NCBI GenBank assembly: GCA_045615665.1 | Contig: JAZLFJ010000008.1 | Location: 5,254 to 69,253 of the forward strand | From: Bacilli bacterium | Lineage (GTDB): Bacteria > Bacillota_I > Bacilli_A > RFN20 > CAG-826 | Direction of reading: 5' to 3' | DNA: 64,000 bases | Part shown: in pieces, positions 3,558 through 32,446 of the stretch | How positions within the stretch are numbered: position 1 is the stretch's first letter | Layout of the letters: every line of letters starts with the position of its first letter | Made by a program: the position numbers and the translations under genes | Notes under the pieces: generated by a model | Seen by the model: only the letters and a program-made list of their open reading frames with translations | Told to the model about the DNA's origin: nothing | Databases searched by the model: none

Positions 3558-3602
3558 AAAGTTTACAACAATTATACATTGTTATTCCTTTTAGTGAATA
3601 GT

Positions 3603-3608
3603 TATAAT
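3603..3608 (+). promoter_or_regulatory. Candidate -10 box (TATAAT), 7 nt before the ung ATG
   Basis: TATAAT at 3603-3608 and ATG at 3616, with no SD sequence. Confidence 0.4.
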
Positions 3609-3615
3609 TGTAAAT

Positions 3616-4272
3616 ATGATATCTTGGAAACCATTCTTTGATGAGATAGCTAAAAAAGACTATTCTAAGTCGCTTCACGAGTTTTTGAATTACGAATATT
3701 CTCATCAAATAATTTATCCTCCAAGACAATTGATGTTCAATGCATTTGAGCTTACGGAAGTTGAAAACATTAAGGTTGTTATTATCGGACAAGATCCTTA
3801 CCATCAACCTGGGCAAGCTATGGGATTATCATTTTCTGTTCCAAGCGGAACAAAACTCCCACCTTCTTTAGTGAATATTTTTAAGGAAATTGAATCAGAT
3901 TTGGGAATAAAGATGCGAAATGATGGGGATTTAACTTATCTTGCTAAACAAGGGGTTTTATTAATCAACGCTTATCTTTCAGTTAGAGAAGGGCAGCCTC
4001 TTTCTCACCACCGAGAAGAATACGATTTATTTATGGTGGATTTAATGAAATATTTGGATAATTTGAACCAGCCAATTGTCTTTATGATGTGGGGGAATTT
4101 TGCTCAAAAATTTGCAAAATACGTTGCAAATCCCAAGCATATTATTTTAAAGAGCGTGCATCCTTCGCCTCTTGGAGCTAACCACGGAGGATGGTTTGGC
4201 TTGAAACAATTTTCGCGTTGTAATGACTACTTGGTTTCTAAGGGTGTGAAACCTATTGATTGGAAAAACTAA
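3616..4272 (+). CDS. ung: Uracil-DNA glycosylase (family 1)
   Basis: 218 aa with the motifs GQDPYH and HPSPLGA and overall UNG-like length. Confidence 0.9.
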   Translation: MISWKPFFDEIAKKDYSKSLHEFLNYEYSHQIIYPPRQLMFNAFELTEVENIKVVIIGQDPYHQPGQAMGLSFSVPSGTKLPPSLVNIFKEIESDLGIKMRNDGDLTYLAKQGVLLINAYLSVREGQPLSHHREEYDLFMVDLMKYLDNLNQPIVFMMWGNFAQKFAKYVANPKHIILKSVHPSPLGANHGGWFGLKQFSRCNDYLVSKGVKPIDWKN

Positions 4273-4284
4273 AGTAATATAATA

Positions 4285-4375
4285 ATGAAGAGGGTGCTGG
4301 ACGTAATCCGGCTGAGATTGCTCTTACTTGAGAGCTGACCTAACCTGATCTAGGTAATGCTAGCGGAGGTACGTT
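4285..4375 (+). promoter_or_regulatory. TPP (THI-box) riboswitch
   Basis: Contains GGGUGCUGG...GGCUGAGA...ACCUAACCUGAUCUAGGUAAUGCUAGCGGAGG, which matches the conserved TPP aptamer core (CUGAGA and ACCUGAUCUGGAUAAUGCCAGCG). It sits directly upstream of a ThiT-like transporter gene. Confidence 0.85.
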
Positions 4376-4384
4376 TTAGTCATT

Positions 4385-4409
4385 TCCGCTATGAAAGGCG
4401 GATTTTTTT
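4385..4409 (+). terminator. Putative riboswitch expression platform (short hairpin plus U7)
   Basis: tccgc(4385-4389)/gcgga(4398-4402) followed by ttttttt. The 3' arm overlaps the only purine-rich SD-like stretch (aaaggcgga), and the ATG follows at 4410. Termination versus SD sequestration cannot be decided from sequence. Confidence 0.4.
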
Positions 4410-5441
4410 ATGGAAGAAGTAAGTAGATTTGACAAGGTTAAAGGCTTTTTAATTAAGTATTTGCCGTATATTTTGATTGGAATCGTTGTTTTATGTATCG
4501 GCTTAAGTATGATTGGTCCTTTCTTTGATTTAAGAGTAAAAATAGATGGCAAAAAGATTGACACAGTTTACCGTTTAACTGATCTTCTATTTTCAAACAA
4601 TGCGGGCAAGAGCACACAAGTTTTCTTTATATTAACTTATCTGGTCCTTCCGCTTCTTGGTTGTGGTTTTATCTTTTTAGGAAAATTTAAAAATAGTTTC
4701 TATACCATTTCTGTTCTTTTGTTTTTAGTTGCTGCAATGTCAGCAATTTTAGCAAATGATGTCACCGCAACAGTTGTAAGTTTAATTACAGAAATGAGTT
4801 ATAACGTTCATGATGTTTATTTCTGCTTCGTTCTTCCAATTATTATTTTCTTTATTGCGGCCTTCTTATCTTTAGCGATCGCTTCAAAAGAAATAAGTAT
4901 TACTGTTTCAGATATCACAGAGATGGGTATTTTGATTGGTCTTGCTCTTGCTCTTAACTTTGTTAAGATCGTGCAAATGCCAACTGGAGGATCAATCAAT
5001 TTCCAAATGTTGCCTTTATTTATATTGGCACTAAGAAAAGGGCCTATTAAAGGTTTCATTGGCGCAGGTATTGCCTATGGTTTAATCTCATGTATCACGG
5101 ACGGTTATGGAATCGCAACTTATCCTTTTGATTACTTATTAGGATTCGGTTCAGTTTGCGTTCTTGGATTCTTCACCCCATATATCTTTGGAGAAAACCA
5201 AAACAATTATAATTTGAAAGGTGAAATTTTCATCTTTGTTGGTGCTTTAATTTCAACTCTTATTCGCTTCATCGGAGGAACCGTTTCTTCATTGATTATT
5301 TATGGATATGATTTAGTTCCTGCAATGGAATATAACTCGTTATATGTTTCAATCTCTGGATTAATAAGCATCGCCTTAATTATGGCGGTTTATGGCCCAT
5401 TTATTCGCGTCAATAAGCGTTTCTCAACGTCGAATAAATAA
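4410..5441 (+). CDS. thiT: Thiamine transporter ThiT-like ECF S-component with a ~165-aa N-terminal multi-TM extension
   Basis: The C-terminal half (GILIGLALALNFVKIVQMPTGGSINFQMLPLFILALRKGPIKGFIGAGIAYGL...) resembles ThiT/YuaJ. The gene is controlled by the TPP riboswitch. Confidence 0.65.
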   Translation: MEEVSRFDKVKGFLIKYLPYILIGIVVLCIGLSMIGPFFDLRVKIDGKKIDTVYRLTDLLFSNNAGKSTQVFFILTYLVLPLLGCGFIFLGKFKNSFYTISVLLFLVAAMSAILANDVTATVVSLITEMSYNVHDVYFCFVLPIIIFFIAAFLSLAIASKEISITVSDITEMGILIGLALALNFVKIVQMPTGGSINFQMLPLFILALRKGPIKGFIGAGIAYGLISCITDGYGIATYPFDYLLGFGSVCVLGFFTPYIFGENQNNYNLKGEIFIFVGALISTLIRFIGGTVSSLIIYGYDLVPAMEYNSLYVSISGLISIALIMAVYGPFIRVNKRFSTSNK

Positions 5442-5503
5442 AAGCACTATATATTATTTCATTTTTCATATACAATTTATTTACTTAATAAATAGGTGAT
5501 CAT

Positions 5504-6508
5504 ATGGAAAACGAAAACGAATTAGAAGTATTAGAAGAGGCGCAAGAAACTGCTCCTACTGAAGAGAGCAAGGAAGAGACTCCAGTTGAGGAAGTTCAAC
5601 CTGTACCAGAGCCAATTACTTATTCTTCCTCATATCTTGAAGCAATCGAAAAAGCACGCGCAGATTTTTTAAAGATTTATAGAACTCAAAATGTTTTTAA
5701 ATGGGTTGTATCTTTTATTGCCATCGCTGCAGTCATTGTAGGAGCGGTTGTCATTCCTAATTTAGGAATTTCTAATTCGCTCTATATTATGATTGGAATG
5801 CTCGTTGGTGCCTTAGCACTTACAATTTTATTTACTGTTTTTGCACGTAAATATATTCGTCAAAAGATGAACGCATATTTCAATCTATATTACAAAAATA
5901 TCAACGATTTTGTCTTTGGTGATATTGCATGCAATATCGAAGCTCAATTTCCTGGCAAGATTCAAAATGATGCATTTTTAGATAACAACCTTTTCAAAGA
6001 TATTGTTGATGTTGGTAGTAGAGGTCTAACAGAATTTACTTATAACAATGTACCAATTGCAGTCGCAGATGCTGCCGCTCAAATTCGAAAAGATAAACGC
6101 TTATATCCAGCTTTCGTTGGTAAATATTTATATGCCGCTTCAAATTATAAAGATGATGATGGACTTTATATTTATTTCAAAGGTGATAAAAGAGCGCTTC
6201 CGCCAACCAATCTAGATGGTGTAAAAATGGTTCAAGAAGATAAGAAAATGATTATCTATTCCAACAATAAAGAATGGAAGAAAGTTATCTCTATAGATGT
6301 TAAGAAGATTCTTACTTCAATTGATATGAATAAAGAACTTGTCGATTTATCTATTTCATTACAAAAGGGTCGAATCTTTGTTTGCATGGGCTATGATGAT
6401 CCTTTGATGGTCTTACCACTTCAACAACAATTTGATCCAAAGCCAACCGAAACATATAAGAAAGATGTTATTAAGGTTTTGAAGTTAATTGAGGAGTTCA
6501 ATAAATAA
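5504..6508 (+). CDS. Hypothetical protein: acidic N-terminus, two TM helices, ~210-aa C-terminal domain of unknown function
   Basis: 334-aa ORF with SD AGGTGA upstream. Its stop abuts the ATG of the next gene. I recognise no family motif. Confidence 0.6.
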   Translation: MENENELEVLEEAQETAPTEESKEETPVEEVQPVPEPITYSSSYLEAIEKARADFLKIYRTQNVFKWVVSFIAIAAVIVGAVVIPNLGISNSLYIMIGMLVGALALTILFTVFARKYIRQKMNAYFNLYYKNINDFVFGDIACNIEAQFPGKIQNDAFLDNNLFKDIVDVGSRGLTEFTYNNVPIAVADAAAQIRKDKRLYPAFVGKYLYAASNYKDDDGLYIYFKGDKRALPPTNLDGVKMVQEDKKMIIYSNNKEWKKVISIDVKKILTSIDMNKELVDLSISLQKGRIFVCMGYDDPLMVLPLQQQFDPKPTETYKKDVIKVLKLIEEFNK

Positions 6509-7039
6509 ATGTTTTCTTTAAAAAGAAAATGGATAATTATTCAAGCCTATAAGCATAACGAAGAACTTCATCGTGAATGGTCACATTCATACGTGCTTGA
6601 GGATAACGATGAATATTTTGTTGCCGCTTCAATAAGAGCGTCTGTTGTTGAATCCGACGGAAGAAAGTGGCACACCAAAGAACCTGCGATTTTTATTCTT
6701 CCAAAGAACAAATGGTTCAATGTTATTGCGATGCTAAAAGAAGATGGTGTTTCCTATTACGTTAACATCGCTTCTCCTTCTTTATATGACAAAGGTTTCA
6801 TCAAATATATCGATTATGATCTTGATATTAAATTATATGGTGATGGAACAACCAGGTTACTGGATGTCAGCGAATATCGTAAACATGCTGAAGAACAAGG
6901 CTATCCCGATGAAATTAGAGAGATATTACAGAAATCGGTTGAGAATGTATATCGCCTAATTCAAGAGAAAAAATTTCCTTTCATCGACCAGGAAATTGAA
7001 AAATATTACAGCCAATTTCAAAAAGAAACTTCTAATTGA
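6509..7039 (+). CDS. DUF402/UPF0374 family nucleoside tri/diphosphatase (Ntdp-like)
   Basis: 176 aa. The pattern IQAYKH...REW...YYVNIASP...YIDYDLDIKLY is characteristic of the Firmicute UPF0374 (DUF402) family. Confidence 0.7.
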   Translation: MFSLKRKWIIIQAYKHNEELHREWSHSYVLEDNDEYFVAASIRASVVESDGRKWHTKEPAIFILPKNKWFNVIAMLKEDGVSYYVNIASPSLYDKGFIKYIDYDLDIKLYGDGTTRLLDVSEYRKHAEEQGYPDEIREILQKSVENVYRLIQEKKFPFIDQEIEKYYSQFQKETSN

Positions 7040-7940
7040 TAATATTAAAGACAGCATCAGCTTCCTCGATCGAAGGTTGGATGCGTCTTTTTTTATTTTC
7101 ATAACTTGCCACATCACCTATCGCAAAGATATTTTTTGTGATTGAATAGGTGGCTGGATTAACTTTTAAAAATGAACCATCTTTTTCAAAATTAAAGCTT
7201 GTTGCTTCGGCCACATTTCCGTAGTTAACAAGTATTAAATCTACGGGAATTGCAGTGAATTTTGGTGTTTTCCTTTCTTCAACAACCTCTCTAATTGTTA
7301 TCGAAGTTGCCTTGTTATTTTCTACATCAATGTGATCAGGAACATATGGTAAATAAACTGCCAAATTATGACAATCTTTTATCGTATCTGCGTTGCCTCT
7401 AAATTCGAGGCGGCGGTGAATAAGTGATACATTATTTGAAATCTTGGAAAGATGCTTGGCCCAGTCAAGAGCTGAATCGCCTCCGCCAAAAATAGCAATT
7501 CGTTTATCTTTAAGCTGAGAATAATCATCTAATTTATAAACAATGTTTTTAACTTCGAATTCATGGTCGGCACCTAACGGTCGTGGAGTAGAGCTACCTA
7601 AACCGGTTGCTATTATTAGATAATCACAGCTAAAAAATAGTGTGCTAGTTTTAACTTCAATTTCATCACCAGGAATAATATCTACTACTTTAGTGTTCAG
7701 TAGCACCTTTTCCTTTTTAAGATTATTCGCTAATTTTGAAGCGTAATCTTTTGCTTTAATCACATCGATGCCTTTAATATCAACAATATCTTTTTCGGGG
7801 TAAAGTCTTGGAAGTTGCCCTCCAAGAGTATCGCTAGCTTCAAGTAAAAGATAATCAAGACCATTGTTTTGACATTTGTTTGCAAAATAAAGACCAGCAG
7901 GTCCTCCACCGATAATAATGATGTGATAATGCTTTTGCAT
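7032..7940 (-). CDS. Ferredoxin--NADP+ reductase, thioredoxin-reductase-like type (YumC-like)
   Basis: 302 aa with FAD motif IIGGGPAGL, the LEASDTLGGQL...YPEKDIVDI pattern, and NADPH motifs GGGDSALDWA and HRRLEFRG. There is no CxxC redox pair. Confidence 0.75.
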   Translation of the reverse strand: MQKHYHIIIIGGGPAGLYFANKCQNNGLDYLLLEASDTLGGQLPRLYPEKDIVDIKGIDVIKAKDYASKLANNLKKEKVLLNTKVVDIIPGDEIEVKTSTLFFSCDYLIIATGLGSSTPRPLGADHEFEVKNIVYKLDDYSQLKDKRIAIFGGGDSALDWAKHLSKISNNVSLIHRRLEFRGNADTIKDCHNLAVYLPYVPDHIDVENNKATSITIREVVEERKTPKFTAIPVDLILVNYGNVAEATSFNFEKDGSFLKVNPATYSITKNIFAIGDVASYENKKRRIQPSIEEADAVFNIIN

Positions 7941-9495: not shown

Positions 9496-10496
9496 TACTA
9501 GGTATTGAATCAAGCTGTGATGAGACTTCAATCGCAATCATTAAAGATGGCGAACTTTTAAGCAATGTTGTCGCTACGCAAATTGAGATGCATCAAAAAT
9601 ATGGTGGAGTTATGCCTGAACTTGCTTCTAGACTACACTGCGAAAATGCTCTATTTGTCTTAGACGAAGCTCTTCAGAAAGCCAATATTACTTTAGACCA
9701 AGTTGATGCATTTGCATTTACTAGAGGACCAGGTTTAATTGGTGCGCTTCACATTGGAATGCAAGTAGCTAAAACTCTTGCCATGTTATACAAAAAACCA
9801 CTTATTCCAGTTCATCATTTAGCGGCACATATTTACGCTAATGAATTTGTAAAACCTCTGCAATTCCCTCTTCTTTCTATAGTTGTATCCGGTGGAAATA
9901 CTGAATTTGTTTATATGAAAGAATCGATGGATTTTGAAATTATTGGCGAAACTAAAGATGATGCAATCGGCGAATGTTTTGATAAAGTTGCTAGAACGGT
10001 CGGGCTTCCATATCCAGGTGGTATACCAATCGACAGACTTTCTAAAGAAGGTAAACATACCTATGAGCTACCATTCCCACTGCATGACGACAGTTTGAAT
10101 TTCTCTTATTCTGGACTTAAAACTGCTGTAATAAATTTAGTGAATAATGAAAAAGCTAGAGGAAACGAAATACGAATTCCTGATTTATGTAAATCTTTCC
10201 AAGACGTTGCTATTTCAATGATTATGGATAGATTAGAAAGAGCTTTGAAAAGATACGATATTAAACAAGTTGTTTTAGCAGGCGGAGTTTCCGCGAACTC
10301 TTATCTAAGAGAACAGATGCATAAACGTCTTGATAATACGAATATAGATTTAATCGTTCCACCAATTTGGTGTACGACAGATAACGCCGCGATGATTGTG
10401 CGACTTGCCGAGCATTTATGGAAACTTGGAGTGACTGCTCCAAGCACCATTTCATGCGATCCTAACTGGCGTATTGATAAATATAAAACATTTTAG
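9486..10496 (+). CDS. tsaD: tRNA N6-adenosine threonylcarbamoyltransferase TsaD
   Basis: 336 aa starting ILGIESSCDETS, with the Kae1/Gcp pattern throughout. Confidence 0.95.
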   Translation: MSIILGIESSCDETSIAIIKDGELLSNVVATQIEMHQKYGGVMPELASRLHCENALFVLDEALQKANITLDQVDAFAFTRGPGLIGALHIGMQVAKTLAMLYKKPLIPVHHLAAHIYANEFVKPLQFPLLSIVVSGGNTEFVYMKESMDFEIIGETKDDAIGECFDKVARTVGLPYPGGIPIDRLSKEGKHTYELPFPLHDDSLNFSYSGLKTAVINLVNNEKARGNEIRIPDLCKSFQDVAISMIMDRLERALKRYDIKQVVLAGGVSANSYLREQMHKRLDNTNIDLIVPPIWCTTDNAAMIVRLAEHLWKLGVTAPSTISCDPNWRIDKYKTF

Positions 10497-10516
10497 ATAA
10501 CAGTAATTTACTGTTT

Positions 10517-10525
10517 TGGTATAAT
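10517..10525 (+). promoter_or_regulatory. Extended -10 promoter TGgTATAAT for asnS
   Basis: Exact TGnTATAAT, 24 nt upstream of the ATG. An SD (GAGG) follows. Confidence 0.5.
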
Positions 10526-10549
10526 GTTAAAGATAAAATGAGGTAGCTT

Positions 10550-11953
10550 ATGGAATATCAAGGTGTAACAATTGCCGACTTATATATGTTGGTGTATTCA
10601 GAAGATCCTGAATATAAGAAGATTTTATCTTCTTTAAAGGAAGTTTTTGTTGAAGGTTGGGTTAGAACAAACCGCGATAATGGTTCAATTGGATTCATTG
10701 CTTTAAATGACGGTACTTGTTTTAAAAACTGTCAACTTGTCTATGACGAAAAAGTTGTTAAAGATTATAAAGATTTAAGTCACATCAATACTGGTGCGGC
10801 TATTGCTGTAAAAGGAAAACTTGTCTTAACTCCTCAAGCAAAACAACCATTTGAAATTAATGTCGATGAATTTGAACTTGTTGGTGATGTTGCGGAAGAC
10901 TATCCTCTTCAAAAGAAGGCTCACTCCTTAGAATTCCTACGTGAAATTGCTCATTTAAGACCAAGAGCCAATACTTTCAATGCTGTCTTTAGAATGAGAA
11001 ACGCTATGTCTATGGCAATACACGAATTCTTCCAATCAGAAGGCTTCATGTATGTTCACACCCCAATAATTACCGGTAACGATGCTGAAGGTGCAGGAAA
11101 TACTTTTGGCATTTATACCAATGACAAAAATCCTAAAACCGATTTCTTTGGTAAAGAAGTTGCGCTAACAGTTTCTGGACAACTTCATGTTGAACCATTC
11201 GCTTTAGCGTTTAGAGATGTATACACATTTGGCCCAACTTTTAGAGCGGAACATTCAAATACAACTCGTCACGCTTCTGAATTCTGGATGATTGAGCCTG
11301 AATTAGCATTTGCTGATTTAAATGATGATATGAACTGTATCGAGTCATGTATCAAACATTGCATCGACGTTGCTTTGCATGAATGTAGAGATGAGATGGA
11401 TTTCTTTAATAATTTTATCGACAAGACTTTAAAAGACCGTCTTCATCATGTTCTCCATTCCGAATTTAAGCGCTTAACATACACCGAGGCAATCGAAGAA
11501 CTCAAAAAAGCCCAACAAAACGGCCATAAATTTGAGAATAATAACATATTCTGGGGTATGGATTTGCAATCAGAACATGAACGTTATATTACTGAACAAG
11601 TCATTAAAGGCCCTGTTTTTGTGACTGATTATCCAAAAGAGATGAAAGCGTTCTATATGAGACAGAACGATGATGGAAAAACCGTCGCTGCCTGTGACTT
11701 ATTGGTTCCTTATGTCGGTGAGCTTGTTGGTGGCTCTCAAAGAGAAGAACGCTATGACGTTTTAAAGAAACGTATGGAAGAAGTTGGCTGCCTTAAAGGC
11801 CTTGAATGGTATCTTGATACTAGAAAATATGGTGGCTGTCCACACGCTGGATTTGGTATCGGTTTTGATCGCTTACTAATGTATGTCACTGGTATCCAAA
11901 ATATTAGGGACGTTCAACCATTCCCAAGAACGAGTGATAAAATCAAATATTAA
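10550..11953 (+). CDS. asnS: Asparagine--tRNA ligase
   Basis: 467 aa with class IIb motifs FRAEHSNTTRHASEFWMIEPE and GGCPHAGFGIGFDRL. Confidence 0.9.
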   Translation: MEYQGVTIADLYMLVYSEDPEYKKILSSLKEVFVEGWVRTNRDNGSIGFIALNDGTCFKNCQLVYDEKVVKDYKDLSHINTGAAIAVKGKLVLTPQAKQPFEINVDEFELVGDVAEDYPLQKKAHSLEFLREIAHLRPRANTFNAVFRMRNAMSMAIHEFFQSEGFMYVHTPIITGNDAEGAGNTFGIYTNDKNPKTDFFGKEVALTVSGQLHVEPFALAFRDVYTFGPTFRAEHSNTTRHASEFWMIEPELAFADLNDDMNCIESCIKHCIDVALHECRDEMDFFNNFIDKTLKDRLHHVLHSEFKRLTYTEAIEELKKAQQNGHKFENNNIFWGMDLQSEHERYITEQVIKGPVFVTDYPKEMKAFYMRQNDDGKTVAACDLLVPYVGELVGGSQREERYDVLKKRMEEVGCLKGLEWYLDTRKYGGCPHAGFGIGFDRLLMYVTGIQNIRDVQPFPRTSDKIKY

Positions 11954-28263: not shown

Positions 28264-28391
28264 AGTGATTTGAATTTTCTTTGTTTCATAATCCGAAATA
28301 AAAAATACGATTAAATCATTGAAAATTAGTGAAAAGTTGTACAGTGTATGACTTTTTATTTTTTTTCATTAAATTTCTAAACATGTTTATA

Positions 28392-28397: not shown

Positions 28398-28431
28398 GTA
28401 TTCACCAAACGGAAGCTGAAATAATTCCGGA

Positions 28432-28451
28432 ATACTCTGTGCGCAGAGTAT
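28432..28451 (+). promoter_or_regulatory. 8-bp hairpin in the nrdD 5' leader
   Basis: atactctg-tgcg-cagagtat followed by atttta. This could be an attenuator or a stabilising hairpin. Confidence 0.35.
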
Positions 28452-28480: not shown

Positions 28481-30862
28481 ATGATTAGAGTAATCAAAAG
28501 AGACGATTCCAGAGAAGAATTTAACATTGGTAAAATCAGCTCCGCTATCGAAAAAGCCTTTATGGCAGAACATAAGTTCTACACTAAAGATATTATTGAA
28601 ATGCTCGCGTTACGCGTGACTGCGGATTTCAATAAAAAGATTAAAGACGAAGAAATTTCACTCGAAGACATTCAAGACTCAGTTGAAGTTGTCTTAATTC
28701 AAGCCGGTTACATTGATGTCGCCAAGAGCTATATGGTGTACCGTAAACAGCACGAAAACTTAAGACAAATTAAGGAAACTAGCATTGACTATAAGAACGT
28801 TATTAATAACTACTTAAAGATCAATGACTGGAGAGTTAAGGAAAACTCAACTGTTACATATTCTGTTGGTGGATTAATTCTTTCCAACTCAGGTGCTGTC
28901 ACCGCAAACTATTGGTTAAGCGAAATCTATGATAAGGAAATCGCCGATGCACACCGCAACGCTGATATTCATATTCATGATTTATCGATGCTTACCGGTT
29001 ATTGTGCAGGATGGTCCTTAAAACAACTTATTACTGAAGGTTTGGGTGGTGTTACTGGCAAGATTACATCTGCTCCAGCTGCTCACTTATCAACACTTTG
29101 TAACCAGATGGTTAACTTCTTAGGTATCATGCAAAATGAATGGGCAGGAGCACAAGCCTTCTCCTCGTTCGATACATATTTAGCACCATTTGTTAAAGCT
29201 GATAACCTAAACTACAAACAAGTCAAACAATGCATTCAATCCTTTATCTATGGTGTTAACACTCCATCTAGATGGGGTACTCAAGCACCATTCACCAACA
29301 TCACTTTAGATTGGGTTGTTCCAAATGATATGGCCGAACTCAACTGTATTGTTGGTGGCAAAGAAATGCCATTTAAATACAAAGATTGTGTCGAAGAAAT
29401 GGCGATGGTCAATAAAGCTTTTATTGAAATTATGATCGAAGGTGACGCTAATGGTCGTGGATTCCAATATCCAATTCCAACCTATTCAATTACCAAAACA
29501 TTCGATTGGTCTGAAACTGAAAACAACAAGTTGTTGTTTACAATGACCGCTAAATACGGAACTCCATATTTCTCTAACTACATCAATTCCGATATGGAAC
29601 CAAGCGATGTTAGAAGTATGTGCTGCCGTCTACGCCTTGATTTAAGAGAACTTCGTAAGAAATCAGGTGGTTTCTTCGGTAGTGGTGAATCAACCGGTTC
29701 CGTCGGTGTCGTCACCATCAACTTACCAAGACTTGCTTATTTAGCAACCGATGAAAAAGATTTCTATTCTAGATTAGATAAAATCATGGATATCTCTGCA
29801 CGTTCACTAAAAGTTAAACGTAACACAATTACCACTTTGCTTGAAGCTGGTTTATATCCATACACCAAACGTTATTTAGGCACCTTTAACAACCACTTCT
29901 CCACAATCGGTTTAGTCGGTATGAACGAAGCTTGCTTAAATGCTAGATGGTTAAGAAAAGATTTAACCAATCCAGAAGCTGTTGAATTCGCTAAAGATGT
30001 TCTCAATCACATGAGAAATAGACTTTCTGATTATCAAGAACTCTATGGAGATCTTTATAACCTTGAAGCCACTCCAGCTGAATCAACTGCTTATCGTTTA
30101 GCTAAACACGATAAGAAGAAATATCCAGACATCATCACCGCAAGTGAAAATGGCAAGACTCCTTATTACACCAACTCTTCACACTTACCAGTTGGTTATA
30201 CCGAAGATATCTTCAAAGCTCTTGATGTCCAAGACGAATTACAGACTCTTTACACATCAGGAACAGTCTTCCACGCTTTCTTAGGACAAAAACTCCCATC
30301 ATACAAATCTTGTATGAATCTTGTTCGTAAGATCGCCGAAAATTACCACATTCCTTATTACACAATGTCTCCAACATATTCAATTTGTAAGGAACATGGT
30401 TATCTTGAAGGCGAACAATACATTTGTCCAAAATGCGGTCAAAGAACCGAAGTTTATTCTAGAATCACTGGTTATTATCGTCCTGTTCAAAACTGGAACG
30501 ATGGTAAGACCGAAGAATTCAAGAATCGTAAAGTTTACGACATCAAGAATTCTCATTTAACTCATGACGCAAACGGCTGTGCAATTGAAAACGAACAACC
30601 AACCGCTGAAGAAAACACCAGTGAAAAACTTAATAAAATCTTGTTATTTGCTACCAAAACCTGTCCAAACTGCAAGATGGCCAAAATGCTTTTAGATAAA
30701 GCGAATATCAAATACGAAGTCATCGACGCTGAAGAAAATGTCGAATTAACTAGGAAATATAACGTTAAAAAGGCTCCAACATTACTTGTTCCAAACGGTA
30801 ATGGAATTGATGTCTTTGAAAATGCTTCCAACATCAAAGGATTTATCGAAAGAGTAAATTAA
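28481..30862 (+). CDS. nrdD: Anaerobic (class III) ribonucleoside-triphosphate reductase with an N-terminal ATP-cone and a fused C-terminal thioredoxin/glutaredoxin-fold domain
   Basis: 793 aa. It has an ATP-cone (MIRVIKRDDSREEFNIGKISSAIEKAF), the NrdD core (TGYCAGWSL, SMCCRLRLD), a Zn site (CKEHG...CPKCG) and a glycyl-radical motif (SRITGYYRPV). The extra domain is KILLFATKTCPNCKMAK...KKAPTLLV. Confidence 0.9.
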   Translation: MIRVIKRDDSREEFNIGKISSAIEKAFMAEHKFYTKDIIEMLALRVTADFNKKIKDEEISLEDIQDSVEVVLIQAGYIDVAKSYMVYRKQHENLRQIKETSIDYKNVINNYLKINDWRVKENSTVTYSVGGLILSNSGAVTANYWLSEIYDKEIADAHRNADIHIHDLSMLTGYCAGWSLKQLITEGLGGVTGKITSAPAAHLSTLCNQMVNFLGIMQNEWAGAQAFSSFDTYLAPFVKADNLNYKQVKQCIQSFIYGVNTPSRWGTQAPFTNITLDWVVPNDMAELNCIVGGKEMPFKYKDCVEEMAMVNKAFIEIMIEGDANGRGFQYPIPTYSITKTFDWSETENNKLLFTMTAKYGTPYFSNYINSDMEPSDVRSMCCRLRLDLRELRKKSGGFFGSGESTGSVGVVTINLPRLAYLATDEKDFYSRLDKIMDISARSLKVKRNTITTLLEAGLYPYTKRYLGTFNNHFSTIGLVGMNEACLNARWLRKDLTNPEAVEFAKDVLNHMRNRLSDYQELYGDLYNLEATPAESTAYRLAKHDKKKYPDIITASENGKTPYYTNSSHLPVGYTEDIFKALDVQDELQTLYTSGTVFHAFLGQKLPSYKSCMNLVRKIAENYHIPYYTMSPTYSICKEHGYLEGEQYICPKCGQRTEVYSRITGYYRPVQNWNDGKTEEFKNRKVYDIKNSHLTHDANGCAIENEQPTAEENTSEKLNKILLFATKTCPNCKMAKMLLDKANIKYEVIDAEENVELTRKYNVKKAPTLLVPNGNGIDVFENASNIKGFIERVN

Positions 30863-30863
30863 T

Positions 30864-31763
30864 ATGGTTGATATAATCATCGTTGGTGGTGGACCATCAG
30901 GAATGAGCGCGGCGCTATATGCGCTTCGCTCAAATAAATCCGTTCTCGTTTTAGAGAAGGAAAACTTTGGTGGACAAATTGCAAACTCTCCTAGAGTCGA
31001 AAACTATCCTTCAATAAAAGAAATATCTGGTTTGGATTTATCAGATAGAATGTTTGAACAAATCACCGATCTTGGTGCTCAGTTCGAACTTGAAGATGTT
31101 TTAAAGATTGAAAAAGTTGAAGATATGTTTGTTGTAACCACTAACTATCGAACATATGAATCTAGAGTCGTAATTATCGCTAACGGAGTTAAACACCGCT
31201 TAATGAATCTTCCTAACGAAGAAAATCTCATTGGTAATGGTGTTAGCTTCTGCGCTGTGTGCGATGGACCAATGTACAAGGGCAAAGAAGTATATTTAAT
31301 CGGCGATGCTAATACGGCGCTTCAATATGCGCTTCTATTAGCAAATTACTGCACTAAAGTTCATATGTTCACGTTATTTGATAAATTCTTTGGTGATAAG
31401 ATTTTAATCGATAGATTATTAAGCAAAGAAAGCATTATTGTTAAACAAAACATGAATCTTGTTCAATATTTAGGCGAAGATAAACTCGAAGGACTTGTGT
31501 TTGAAAACACTAAGACCAAAGAGAAGAGCGAATATCGCACCGATAACGTCTTTGTGGCGATTGGACAAATTCCAAACAATGAAAAATTTGCCAATCTAGT
31601 CGATTTAGAAAATGGATATATTGTCACTGACGACGCCATGTGCACCAAAACCCCAGGCGTTTATGCGTGCGGTGACACTAGAAAAAAAGAAACACGCCAA
31701 GTTGTTACGGCGTGCAATGATGGAGCGATTGCTGCGCTAAGCGCAGTTAAATATTTGGGTTAA
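30864..31763 (+). CDS. Thioredoxin-reductase-like flavoprotein (CAVC) lacking canonical NADPH-binding motifs
   Basis: 299 aa with FAD motif VGGGPSG and redox pair FCAVCDG. It has GDANTA where TrxB has GGGxxA, and HMFTLFDKFFG where TrxB has HxxHRRxxFRA. It starts 1 nt after the nrdD stop. Confidence 0.75.
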   Translation: MVDIIIVGGGPSGMSAALYALRSNKSVLVLEKENFGGQIANSPRVENYPSIKEISGLDLSDRMFEQITDLGAQFELEDVLKIEKVEDMFVVTTNYRTYESRVVIIANGVKHRLMNLPNEENLIGNGVSFCAVCDGPMYKGKEVYLIGDANTALQYALLLANYCTKVHMFTLFDKFFGDKILIDRLLSKESIIVKQNMNLVQYLGEDKLEGLVFENTKTKEKSEYRTDNVFVAIGQIPNNEKFANLVDLENGYIVTDDAMCTKTPGVYACGDTRKKETRQVVTACNDGAIAALSAVKYLG

Positions 31764-32446
31764 TAACCTCTAAGTTCTACGTTTAATACGTAACTAGCTA
31801 AAATATCCTTATATGATAAAGCCCAAACCTGTTCAACCGGGTGGAGGCCTTTTTTAATTACGCCTTCGCGGTCTACGAATTTCTGTAAGAAAAGTTTTTT
31901 AGCGCCTTTAATAAGTTTACCCATTTCTTTAATTGATTCTTCAGAATGATATTCTGCCACCAATGTGGTTCTAAATTCATAATCTATTCCTGAATTCATA
32001 ATGATGGAAATAGATTGTTTAATTTTATCCAATTGAGGGTTTTTAACACCAGTTGTTTCCGGATAGATTTTCTCACTGTTTTTAATATCCATTGCAACGT
32101 AATTTATCAGGTCTTTGCGGAGTAATTCGCCTAAAACATCAGGATTTGTACCATTCGTATCCAGTTTAATTTTAAAACCTAATTCTTTAATTTTTTCAAT
32201 CTTTATAACGACATCATCCATAAGTGTTGGTTCTCCGCCTGAAACGACAACAGCATCGATTAAACCAACTCTAGTTTTTAAAAAAGATAGTATCTCATCG
32301 AAAGGAATTGAAAAATGGCTTCCTAATACTGAATCGCCGTTATGACAAAATGGACAACGATAATTACATGTGGGTGCGAATAAAACAACTGATACATTTT
32401 CATCGTAATCAAGTAATGAGAATTTATCTATTCCTACGAAATCCAT
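31760..32446 (-). CDS. nrdG: Anaerobic RNR activating protein (radical SAM)
   Basis: 228 aa with the CNYRCPFCHN cluster motif and GGEPTL. Confidence 0.85.
   Translation of the reverse strand: MDFVGIDKFSLLDYDENVSVVLFAPTCNYRCPFCHNGDSVLGSHFSIPFDEILSFLKTRVGLIDAVVVSGGEPTLMDDVVIKIEKIKELGFKIKLDTNGTNPDVLGELLRKDLINYVAMDIKNSEKIYPETTGVKNPQLDKIKQSISIIMNSGIDYEFRTTLVAEYHSEESIKEMGKLIKGAKKLFLQKFVDREGVIKKGLHPVEQVWALSYKDILASYVLNVELRGY

Follow-up and report, generated by a model that had tools for sequence, protein, structure and literature searches.

A thioredoxin-reductase-like flavoprotein without the NADPH signature is encoded beside a redoxin-fused class III ribonucleotide reductase in uncultured Bacilli

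The route by which class III ribonucleotide reductases (RNRs) are re-reduced is settled for few enzymes, which rely on formate, on the chain from NADPH through thioredoxin reductase (TrxR) to thioredoxin (Trx), or on one archaeal iron-sulfur ferredoxin:disulfide reductase. Here we describe a locus in a Bacilli bacterium (assembly GCA_045615665.1, contig JAZLFJ010000008.1) in which a gene for a flavoprotein of the TrxR fold, lacking the NADPH signature (30864–31763, + strand), lies between nrdD, coding for a class III RNR, and nrdG, coding for its activase. Coordinates refer to the 64-kb stretch of DNA that was analysed, called the window throughout.

Class III enzymes are known to be re-reduced by formate or by the thioredoxin/TrxR/NADPH system (PMC9669993, PMC13450708), and a thioredoxin-driven NrdD has been described in Neisseria bacilliformis (PMC4493059, PMC9669993). 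Enzymes that combine a double-cysteine finger loop, a βA cysteine and an active-site glutamate can form an active-site disulfide, which a thioredoxin-type protein can re-reduce (PMC4493059; PMC9669993). TrxR homologues that are independent of NAD(P)H are found in clostridia, cyanobacteria, Desulfovibrio, Thermoplasma, and methanogens (PMC10880999, PMC8154056, PMC5627308; further precedents in PMC12796991). Among these, the flavin thioredoxin reductases that depend on ferredoxin (FFTRs) are unable to use NADPH and take their electrons from ferredoxin (PMC8154056, PMC12796991). In the searchable literature, the coverage of which is incomplete, no flavin TrxR without an NADPH site is described as joined to a class III RNR. 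This agrees with an earlier reading of the locus made from its sequence (hereafter the sequence-only reading), which had regarded a flavin-type, NADPH-independent reductase as undescribed among the electron sources of these enzymes.

The rebuilt nucleotide site of the flavoprotein

The flavoprotein gene is an open reading frame (ORF) of 299 codons whose product matches Pfam Pyr_redox_2 with 136 bits. The product is also matched end to end by TIGR01292, the equivalog model of thioredoxin-disulfide reductases, with a score (315.3 bits) below the curated cut-off (343.45). Of the features that define membership in TrxB, the GxGxxG motif that binds flavin adenine dinucleotide (FAD), the redox-active CxxC, and the C-terminal GD motif are present, and both GGGxxA and HRRxxxR are absent. 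The FAD-binding motif reads VGGGPSG (residues 7–13, nucleotides 30882–30902, + strand), with G8 and G10 invariant. The redox-active motif reads CAVC (residues 130–133, nucleotides 31251–31262, + strand), with C130 and C133 invariant in 62 aligned homologues and the motif found in 80/80 of the loci described below. The GD motif reads ACGDTR, with G270 and D271 invariant. Judged by these motifs, the parts for a transfer from FAD to the CxxC and on to a partner of thioredoxin fold are all present in the protein.

The two halves of the nucleotide site are both altered. At the pyrophosphate-binding turn, where NADPH enzymes read GGGxxAxE[ED], the flavoprotein reads GDANTALQY (31302–31328, + strand), the GDANTA of its LIGDANTA corresponding to residues 147–152 (31302–31319). 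At the 2′-phosphate site, where NADPH enzymes read HRRDxxRA, it reads TLFDKFFG (31371–31394, + strand), within HMFTLFDKFFG, which begins at nucleotide 31362. Both assignments come from HMMER alignments and from conservation in the clade. When the protein is aligned to solved NADPH-dependent TrxRs, GDANTA falls under GGGDSA or GGGNTA and TLFDKFFG under HRRDxxRA ('ligDAntalQYall' under 'vigGGdsavEEgvf', and 'kvhmfTLFdkfFgdkil' under 'kvtivHRRdtlRaqkil'), and the same holds for Escherichia coli TrxB. The sequence-only reading had listed the FAD motif, FCAVCDG (with coordinates that cover its CAVC), LIGDANTA, and HMFTLFDKFFG, and all are present, at the positions where it gave them. The nucleotide-type domain is of full length and retains G147, A152, and D173. 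The AF2 model of the protein has a pLDDT of 94.1 and a pTM of 0.83.

A scan for homologues that kept one genome per species gave 80 loci, from metagenome-assembled genomes (MAGs) of uncultured rumen, gut, and digester Bacilli or 'Erysipelotrichaceae'. Their flavoproteins are 56–97% identical to that of the window, the best being RUG11348 with 97%. All 80 have GxGxxG, CxxC, G-D-[AG]-N-[TS]-A, and [TA]-L-F-x-x-[FLW]-F-[GA], and none has HRR (0/80). Comparison with 66 HRR-type representatives of the family gives 18 clade-diagnostic positions, and half of these (9/18) are within the former nucleotide site. At the positions of D148 and A149 of the clade, NADPH enzymes carry two glycines; at Q154 and Y155 they carry E/Q/D and D/E; at T170, L171, and F172, H, R, and R; and at F176, R. 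Y162 is also a diagnostic position of the site. D148, Q154, and Y155 are 100% conserved within the clade. Among 35 nonredundant clade sequences, with a mean pairwise identity of 58%, the columns of the former NADPH site have a mean entropy of 0.31, against a median of 1.07; when columns were resampled at random, a single draw in 10000 was equally conserved. A site without function would be expected to drift. Because conservation is higher here than in the remainder of the protein, this site has been re-purposed and not decayed. Hence, the NADPH site has been rebuilt and is held fixed, and the residue swaps are not due to chance. The replaced site being the most conserved part of the protein, a pseudogene or a decaying gene is ruled out.

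The residues by which TrxRs contact their redoxins, G-[KR]-G and F-[YF], are largely kept across the clade. The protein of the window carries a minority variant of this surface, with N125 (31236–31241) and M137 (31272–31274) where Lys/Arg and Phe prevail in the clade and among NADPH-dependent TrxRs. An altered redoxin interface was considered on these grounds and dismissed, as the clade overall keeps K/R and F at the two positions.

The operon and the partner NrdD

The flavoprotein gene is tightly packed between its neighbours. Its start codon lies 1 nt after the end of nrdD, and its 3′ end overlaps by 4 nt the convergent gene nrdG (31760–32446, − strand). The latter codes for a radical-SAM activase (TIGR02495 NrdG2, 190 bits for a cut-off of 131) with the motif CNYRCPFC (32345–32368, − strand). 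The gap and the overlap are as the sequence-only reading had given them, and the conservation of the neighbourhood that it proposed to check is found as synteny in at least 80 species. A fusion of NrdD with a redoxin is encoded directly upstream of the flavoprotein gene in every locus with sufficient upstream DNA, mostly with a gap of 1–5 nt, and nrdG is adjoining and convergent in most of the 80 loci.

The nrdD gene (28481–30862, + strand) codes for a protein of 793 aa in which an ATP-cone (Pfam, 75 bits) and an NRDD core (Pfam NRDD, 633 bits) are followed by a C-terminal redoxin; NCBIfam NF006126 matches it with 1126 bits. The ATP-cone covers residues 3–92 (28487–28756, + strand; Pfam PF03477, E = 6e-21). 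The active site can be followed by alignment with the enzyme of Thermotoga maritima. Tyr174-Cys175 (29000–29005, + strand), with the βA cysteine, aligns to Tyr124-Cys125 (residue roles in PMC4493059). The double-cysteine finger loop MCCR (residues 380–383, 29618–29629, + strand) aligns to SCCR 328–331 (classification in PMC9669993), and is found in 67/67 loci that cover this loop. NLEATP (30059–30076, + strand) contains Glu529, equivalent to Glu495, the proposed proton donor of formate-independent reduction (PMC9669993), and NLEATP is present in 71/71 loci that cover it. The glycyl-radical motif RITGYY (30461–30478, + strand) aligns to RIVGY around Gly621. By its active-site residues, the NrdD of the window fits the thiol-reducible class III RNRs (NrdD2 sensu Wei et al.).

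Behind a variable linker, residues ~715–793 of NrdD form a domain resembling glutaredoxin and NrdH (30623–30859, + strand), with matches to Pfam Glutaredoxin (35.3 bits, cut-off 22.9) and Thioredoxin (24.4 bits, cut-off 23.5). It scores below the cut-offs of NrdH TIGR02194 (21.7 vs 85.75 bits) and YruB TIGR02196 (28.2 vs 88.55 bits). Its CPNC motif (30662–30673, + strand) provides Cys728 and Cys731, and is present in 76/79 loci; the redoxin and the NrdD core are in one ORF in 76/79. A redoxin fused to NrdD is hard to account for otherwise, which argues that the thiol route is in use. In some NrdD fusions (L009–L012), an extra CxxC (CEEC or CNEC) is present in the linker, between the glycyl-radical and redoxin domains. 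Some redoxin genes of 72–76 aa seem to be split from nrdD. The single case examined (L179) is a frameshifted nrdD, and not a genuine stand-alone gene.

The same position in the operon is also occupied by canonical enzymes. The two HRR-type representatives examined both directly follow NrdD-CPNC fusions that are 72–79% identical to the NrdD of the window. One of them, P0126 (GGGNSA/HRRDTFRG; L176, 2885–6912), is the best-scoring match that lacks the GD form of the turn, and the other, P0149 (GGGSTA/HRRREFRA; L178, 2–1583), groups with it in the tree. The position is thus a slot for a TrxR that serves NrdD, and the linkage of nrdD with a TrxR is not peculiar to the form without an NADPH site. 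With a canonical HRR TrxR in the same slot, the most economical reading is that the NADPH-less form derives from such an enzyme, and the operons suggest that the GD-type form arose from an NADPH-TrxR of this very slot.

The linkage with nrdD persists at greater distance. In two metagenome contigs (L081 and L092), GD-type proteins with 47–48% identity to the protein of the window in tblastn are again encoded after NrdD-redoxin fusions. The protein of L092 (P0125; 6001–6915), beside a convergent nrdG, keeps GDGNSA and has AIQPRLLA instead of TLFDxFF. The TLFDxFF motif is therefore not universal even among the GD-type proteins that are linked to the operon.

A pattern match alone identifies a terminator-like hairpin followed by a T-run (31692–31715, − strand), 45 nt past the stop codon of nrdG and inside the 3′ end of the flavoprotein coding sequence. 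Just 5′ of the ribosome-binding site of nrdD lies a near-perfect palindrome, ATACTCTGTGCGCAGAGTAT (~28424–28446). An element farther upstream, TACAGTGTA (~28339–28350), is seen again ahead of nrdD in several related loci. A search for NrdR boxes upstream of nrdD gave no convincing one.

Kinship, electron donor and rival explanations

The sequence-only reading had likened the flavoprotein to FFTRs, a kinship that the comparisons do not bear out. Judged by bit scores and not by a tree, it is closest to solved NADPH enzymes of the Bacillus type (7AAW of Bacillus cereus, 224.5 bits; 4GCM of Staphylococcus aureus, 204.8 bits), far above the FFTRs 6GNA, 6GNC, and 5J60 (125, 137, and 145 bits). As a control, the canonical HRR-type protein P0128 scores 113, 119, and 158 bits to the same three structures, and because these values are nearly equal the flavoprotein is not specially akin to FFTRs. 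The disulfide domain has its full length; as a fragment, it best matches TrxB of the E. coli/Haemophilus type, with FFTRs near the bottom and aligned with deletions, of ~10 residues in 6gnc. Residues 3–297 of the flavoprotein span residues 8–283 of 6gna. The protein ends where NADPH-dependent TrxRs end, whereas 5j60 runs on to residue 320. In Foldseek searches, the model fits the flavin-oxidising (FO) state of NADPH enzymes, those of B. cereus and S. aureus among them (TM 0.93–0.94), and no FFTR is among the top 50 matches, a ranking that partly reflects conformation. In sequence, the flavoprotein thus shares with clostridial or cyanobacterial FFTRs only membership in the family, and what it has in common with an FFTR is only the missing NADPH motifs.

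An exhaustive search, summarized by representatives at 50% identity, finds GD-type proteins down to ~40% identity. In a neighbour-joining tree of 148 family members, all GDxNxA proteins group together, with weak bootstraps: 36% for the whole GD group, 9% for the same group without the motif columns, and 42–56% for the nrdD-linked core. Given these values, a single origin of the phage and cellular GD forms and a definite sister group are not claimed, and the exact branching is left unsettled. The exhaustive search also shows a separate, sizeable group of TrxR homologues without HRR (P0132, P0156, P0162, and others), which keeps GGGNSA and reads Q-[ND]-L-x-x-L-T at the site of HRRxxxR (e.g., 'GGGNSA ... 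QNLxxLT'). Its closest solved relative is the enzyme of Thermosipho africanus (PDB 7JYP), and it looks like another HRR-less lineage.

GD-type homologues are also found in phages. A version with GDGNTA and TLFDKFFC occurs in 11 genuine large phage genomes of IMG/VR, of 94–148 kb (L096–L106, around 10001–10912). There the gene lies between those of a ClpP-like protease and PhoH, in a module for replication and nucleotide metabolism that also codes for a DNA polymerase, an exonuclease, a helicase, an RNA ligase, and a polynucleotide kinase. In these 11 genomes, no nrdD was found within 10 kb of it. Six other GD-type representatives are in phage-like contigs; such contigs include L082–L088, L094, and L095, and the phage forms are 40–47% identical to the protein of the window. 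A search of INPHARED returned, among its three best matches, two canonical HRR enzymes (L090 and L091); many of the other records are short and unannotated. The one GD-type match, MT835493.1 (L089, 'UNVERIFIED Bacteriophage sp.'), has at 3593–7840 the whole operon of the bacterial type, with nrdG, an nrdD-redoxin fusion, and a GD-type flavoprotein of 54% identity, and this record labelled as phage is probably bacterial DNA.

What does the rebuilt site imply for the electron donor? The arginines that bind the 2′-phosphate are gone, Asp-Ala replaces Gly-Gly at the pyrophosphate turn, and an aromatic and hydrophobic patch (Y155, L171, F172, and F176) replaces a charged one, so that NAD(P)H is probably no longer the donor of the flavoprotein. 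On balance, we favour the view that the protein is a dedicated reductase of the redoxin domain fused to NrdD, an enzyme with FAD and CxxC that works without NADPH. Starting from an NADPH-TrxR, the site would have been rebuilt by changing the second Gly of GxGxxA to Ala, preceded by Asp, the three Arg of the 2′-phosphate site to Leu, Phe, and Phe, and one acidic residue to Tyr, with a conserved hydrophobic and aromatic surface as the result. Electrons would pass from an external donor to FAD, to Cys130/Cys133, to Cys728/Cys731 of the tethered redoxin, to the NrdD active-site disulfide, and finally to the ribonucleotide. That disulfide would be formed by the βA Cys175 and a finger-loop Cys of MCCR, and the tethered redoxin may swing on its variable linker to reduce it. 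The sequence-only reading had proposed such a chain; its steps from the flavoenzyme to NrdD are strongly backed by synteny, and its first step is not, as no donor gene is linked to the operon.

The best candidate for the donor is a low-potential protein carrier, ferredoxin or flavodoxin, at chances a little short of even. A ferredoxin donor and the FFTR label are both unproven, and ferredoxin in particular would be assigned by analogy with FFTRs. A low-potential carrier is needed to reduce the cluster of the activase, as established for the glycyl-radical activases of E. coli (summary in PMC13450708). Since the cell needs a carrier for the cluster of NrdG anyway, a ferredoxin or flavodoxin donor is plausible, and the pool in question would plausibly be the one that reduces the [4Fe-4S] cluster of NrdG. 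Such carriers should exist in the organism, since the window encodes, outside the operon, a TrxR-type ferredoxin(flavodoxin)-NADP reductase (7032–7940, − strand). It has GGGDSA and HRRLEFRG intact and no CxxC, and among solved structures it is closest to ferredoxin-NADP reductases of the TrxR type (6gas and 8c16, 136 bits; 3lzw, 134 bits). With this gene keeping the NADPH signature, its loss is specific to the flavoprotein gene, as the sequence-only reading had noticed. In one locus (L179), a polyferredoxin-like ORF of 126 aa (1159–1539) lies 2.3 kb upstream of the frameshifted nrdD, a GD-type flavoprotein gene, and nrdG. As a linked donor it was rejected, because a gene on the opposite strand intervenes and the arrangement is seen in a single locus.

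Several points weigh against a dedicated, NADPH-independent reductase fed by such a carrier. Motif scans of the window and of the flanks of the 80 loci reveal no ferredoxin, flavodoxin, or rubredoxin gene, and the inserts found between the flavoprotein gene and nrdG contain nothing redox-related. The flavoprotein has no specific relation to the enzymes that are proven to depend on ferredoxin. Its nucleotide-type domain, complete and with the first Gly and the last Ala of GxGxxA kept, remains compatible with an unusual NADH site. NrdD has kept the Met of the finger loop, which is compatible with the use of formate (PMC9669993), and the thiol route may not be the sole one. Finally, phage homologues without a nearby nrdD indicate that the GD type of protein is not intrinsically bound to NrdD.

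Some of these points lead to the best-surviving rival, namely that the flavoprotein is still a pyridine-nucleotide enzyme, most likely NADH-dependent through a non-canonical site, and that the operon is a variant of the NADPH/TrxR/Trx system of the N. bacilliformis NrdD. The nearest solved relatives and the best structure matches are NADPH-dependent TrxRs, nothing of the domain's length is lost and G147, A152, and D173 are in place, related operons run canonical HRR enzymes, and both T. maritima and Desulfovibrio vulgaris (TR3) have TrxRs that lack HRR and prefer NADH (PMC5627308). Yet both halves of the site are altered, with Asp and Ala for the glycines of the turn and T, L, F, and F for the His and three Arg. 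Q154 and Y155 are invariant where NADPH enzymes have acidic residues, and conserved replacements fit a new partner better than a relaxed specificity. We consider this explanation unlikely.

Somewhat less likely still is that the flavoprotein is the general TrxR of the organism, with many thiol clients, and that its place beside nrdD reflects no more than the large demand of NrdD. It would explain why a second TrxR with CxxC and a WCGPC thioredoxin are both missing from the window, why the redoxin-binding residues typical of TrxRs are kept in the clade, and why phage homologues stand alone without nrdD. Against this, the absence from the window covers 64 kb of genome, the gene is tightly coupled in translation to the NrdD fusion in ~80 species, and the flavoprotein co-diverges with NrdD. 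The weakest alternative, a flavoprotein that has lost its reductase function and serves NrdD as a structural, regulatory, or oxygen-related partner (e.g., a flavin redox sensor or a thiol oxidase), could appeal to the lack of an identified donor and to the NCBIfam TrxR score below cut-off, and is very improbable, since FAD motifs, CxxC, GD motif, and redoxin-binding residues that are invariant or nearly so across 41–97% identity are the pattern of a working disulfide reductase.

Comparison with described systems

A dedicated, NADPH-independent reductase of the fused redoxin would have consequences beyond this locus. In its most extended form, which we put forward tentatively and as somewhat less probable than its parts, the flavoprotein represents a third lineage of flavin TrxRs that do without pyridine nucleotides, evolved independently of the others, which arose from an NADPH-TrxR dedicated to NrdD, couples class III deoxyribonucleotide (dNTP) synthesis directly to the ferredoxin/flavodoxin pool, and has relatives recruited by large phages. 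If so, the TrxR scaffold became independent of NADPH on more than one occasion, and the site was rebuilt differently on each. No earlier case would then be known of a class III RNR that receives its electrons from a flavin enzyme without NADPH, and a natural counterpart of the NADPH type would be at hand. If the donor is ferredoxin or flavodoxin, the dNTP supply of widespread uncultured gut and rumen Bacilli would run on low-potential electrons derived from fermentation, and not on NADPH. The locus offers a compact three-gene system, in which NrdD with its redoxin, a dedicated flavoprotein, and the activase are encoded together, and the HRR-type operons provide a natural control with an NADPH site. 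The residue set D-A / Q-Y / T-L-F / F can serve as an annotation signature for proteins whose present label is no more specific than FAD-dependent oxidoreductase or thioredoxin reductase.

A class III RNR fed from ferredoxin is not without precedent, as Wei et al. reportedly described in 2015 such a system for NrdD3 of Methanosarcina barkeri, with an NrdH-like redoxin and a ferredoxin:disulfide reductase. That reductase is said to be of the iron-sulfur ferredoxin-thioredoxin reductase (FTR) type and not a flavoprotein, and the system to be archaeal, with an NrdD that lacks the Glu. The NrdD of the window resembles instead the NrdD2 of N. bacilliformis and T. maritima, with the double-cysteine finger loop, the βA Cys, the active-site Glu, and thiol re-reduction by a thioredoxin system, and differs in having the redoxin fused to it, the reductase encoded alongside without an NADPH site, and MCCR in place of SCCR. 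Tethering a redoxin to an RNR subunit as its reductant is known from the Grx::NrdB of Facklamia ignava (PMC6187632), which is, however, a class I and glutathione-dependent system. A grx::nrdD fusion of Lachnospiraceae bacterium TWA4 is only listed, with no dedicated reductase described (PMC6187632).

On the side of the reductase, the flavoprotein has the same-length two-domain fold, the FAD motifs, the CxxC, and most of the redoxin-binding residues of the NADPH-dependent TrxBs (7AAW, 4GCM, and 1TDE of E. coli), and differs from them by GDANTA and TLFDxFF in place of GGGxxA and HRRxxxR and by falling under the TIGR01292 cut-off. The FFTRs (clostridial 6GNA and 6GNC; cyanobacterial 5J60 and 6XTF) are likewise TrxR homologues with FAD and CxxC, and may serve as a functional model. 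In clostridial FFTRs the disulfide domain is ~20 residues shorter than that of the flavoprotein, the cyanobacterial ones have a C-terminal tail with a flavin-stacking Trp that the flavoprotein lacks, and no linkage with an RNR is described for either. The TRi of D. vulgaris (5NII; TQ/NGK motif) and the TrxR of Thermoplasma acidophilum (3CTY) have also lost HRR in a TrxR scaffold, with donors that are not established (PMC5627308). They have other replacement motifs and no RNR linkage, and the relation in sequence is weak (5nii scores 84.5 bits to the flavoprotein). In conclusion, the new elements are a lineage of TrxR without the NADPH site and its wiring to an NrdD of known type, a variant with good genomic support and a predicted function.

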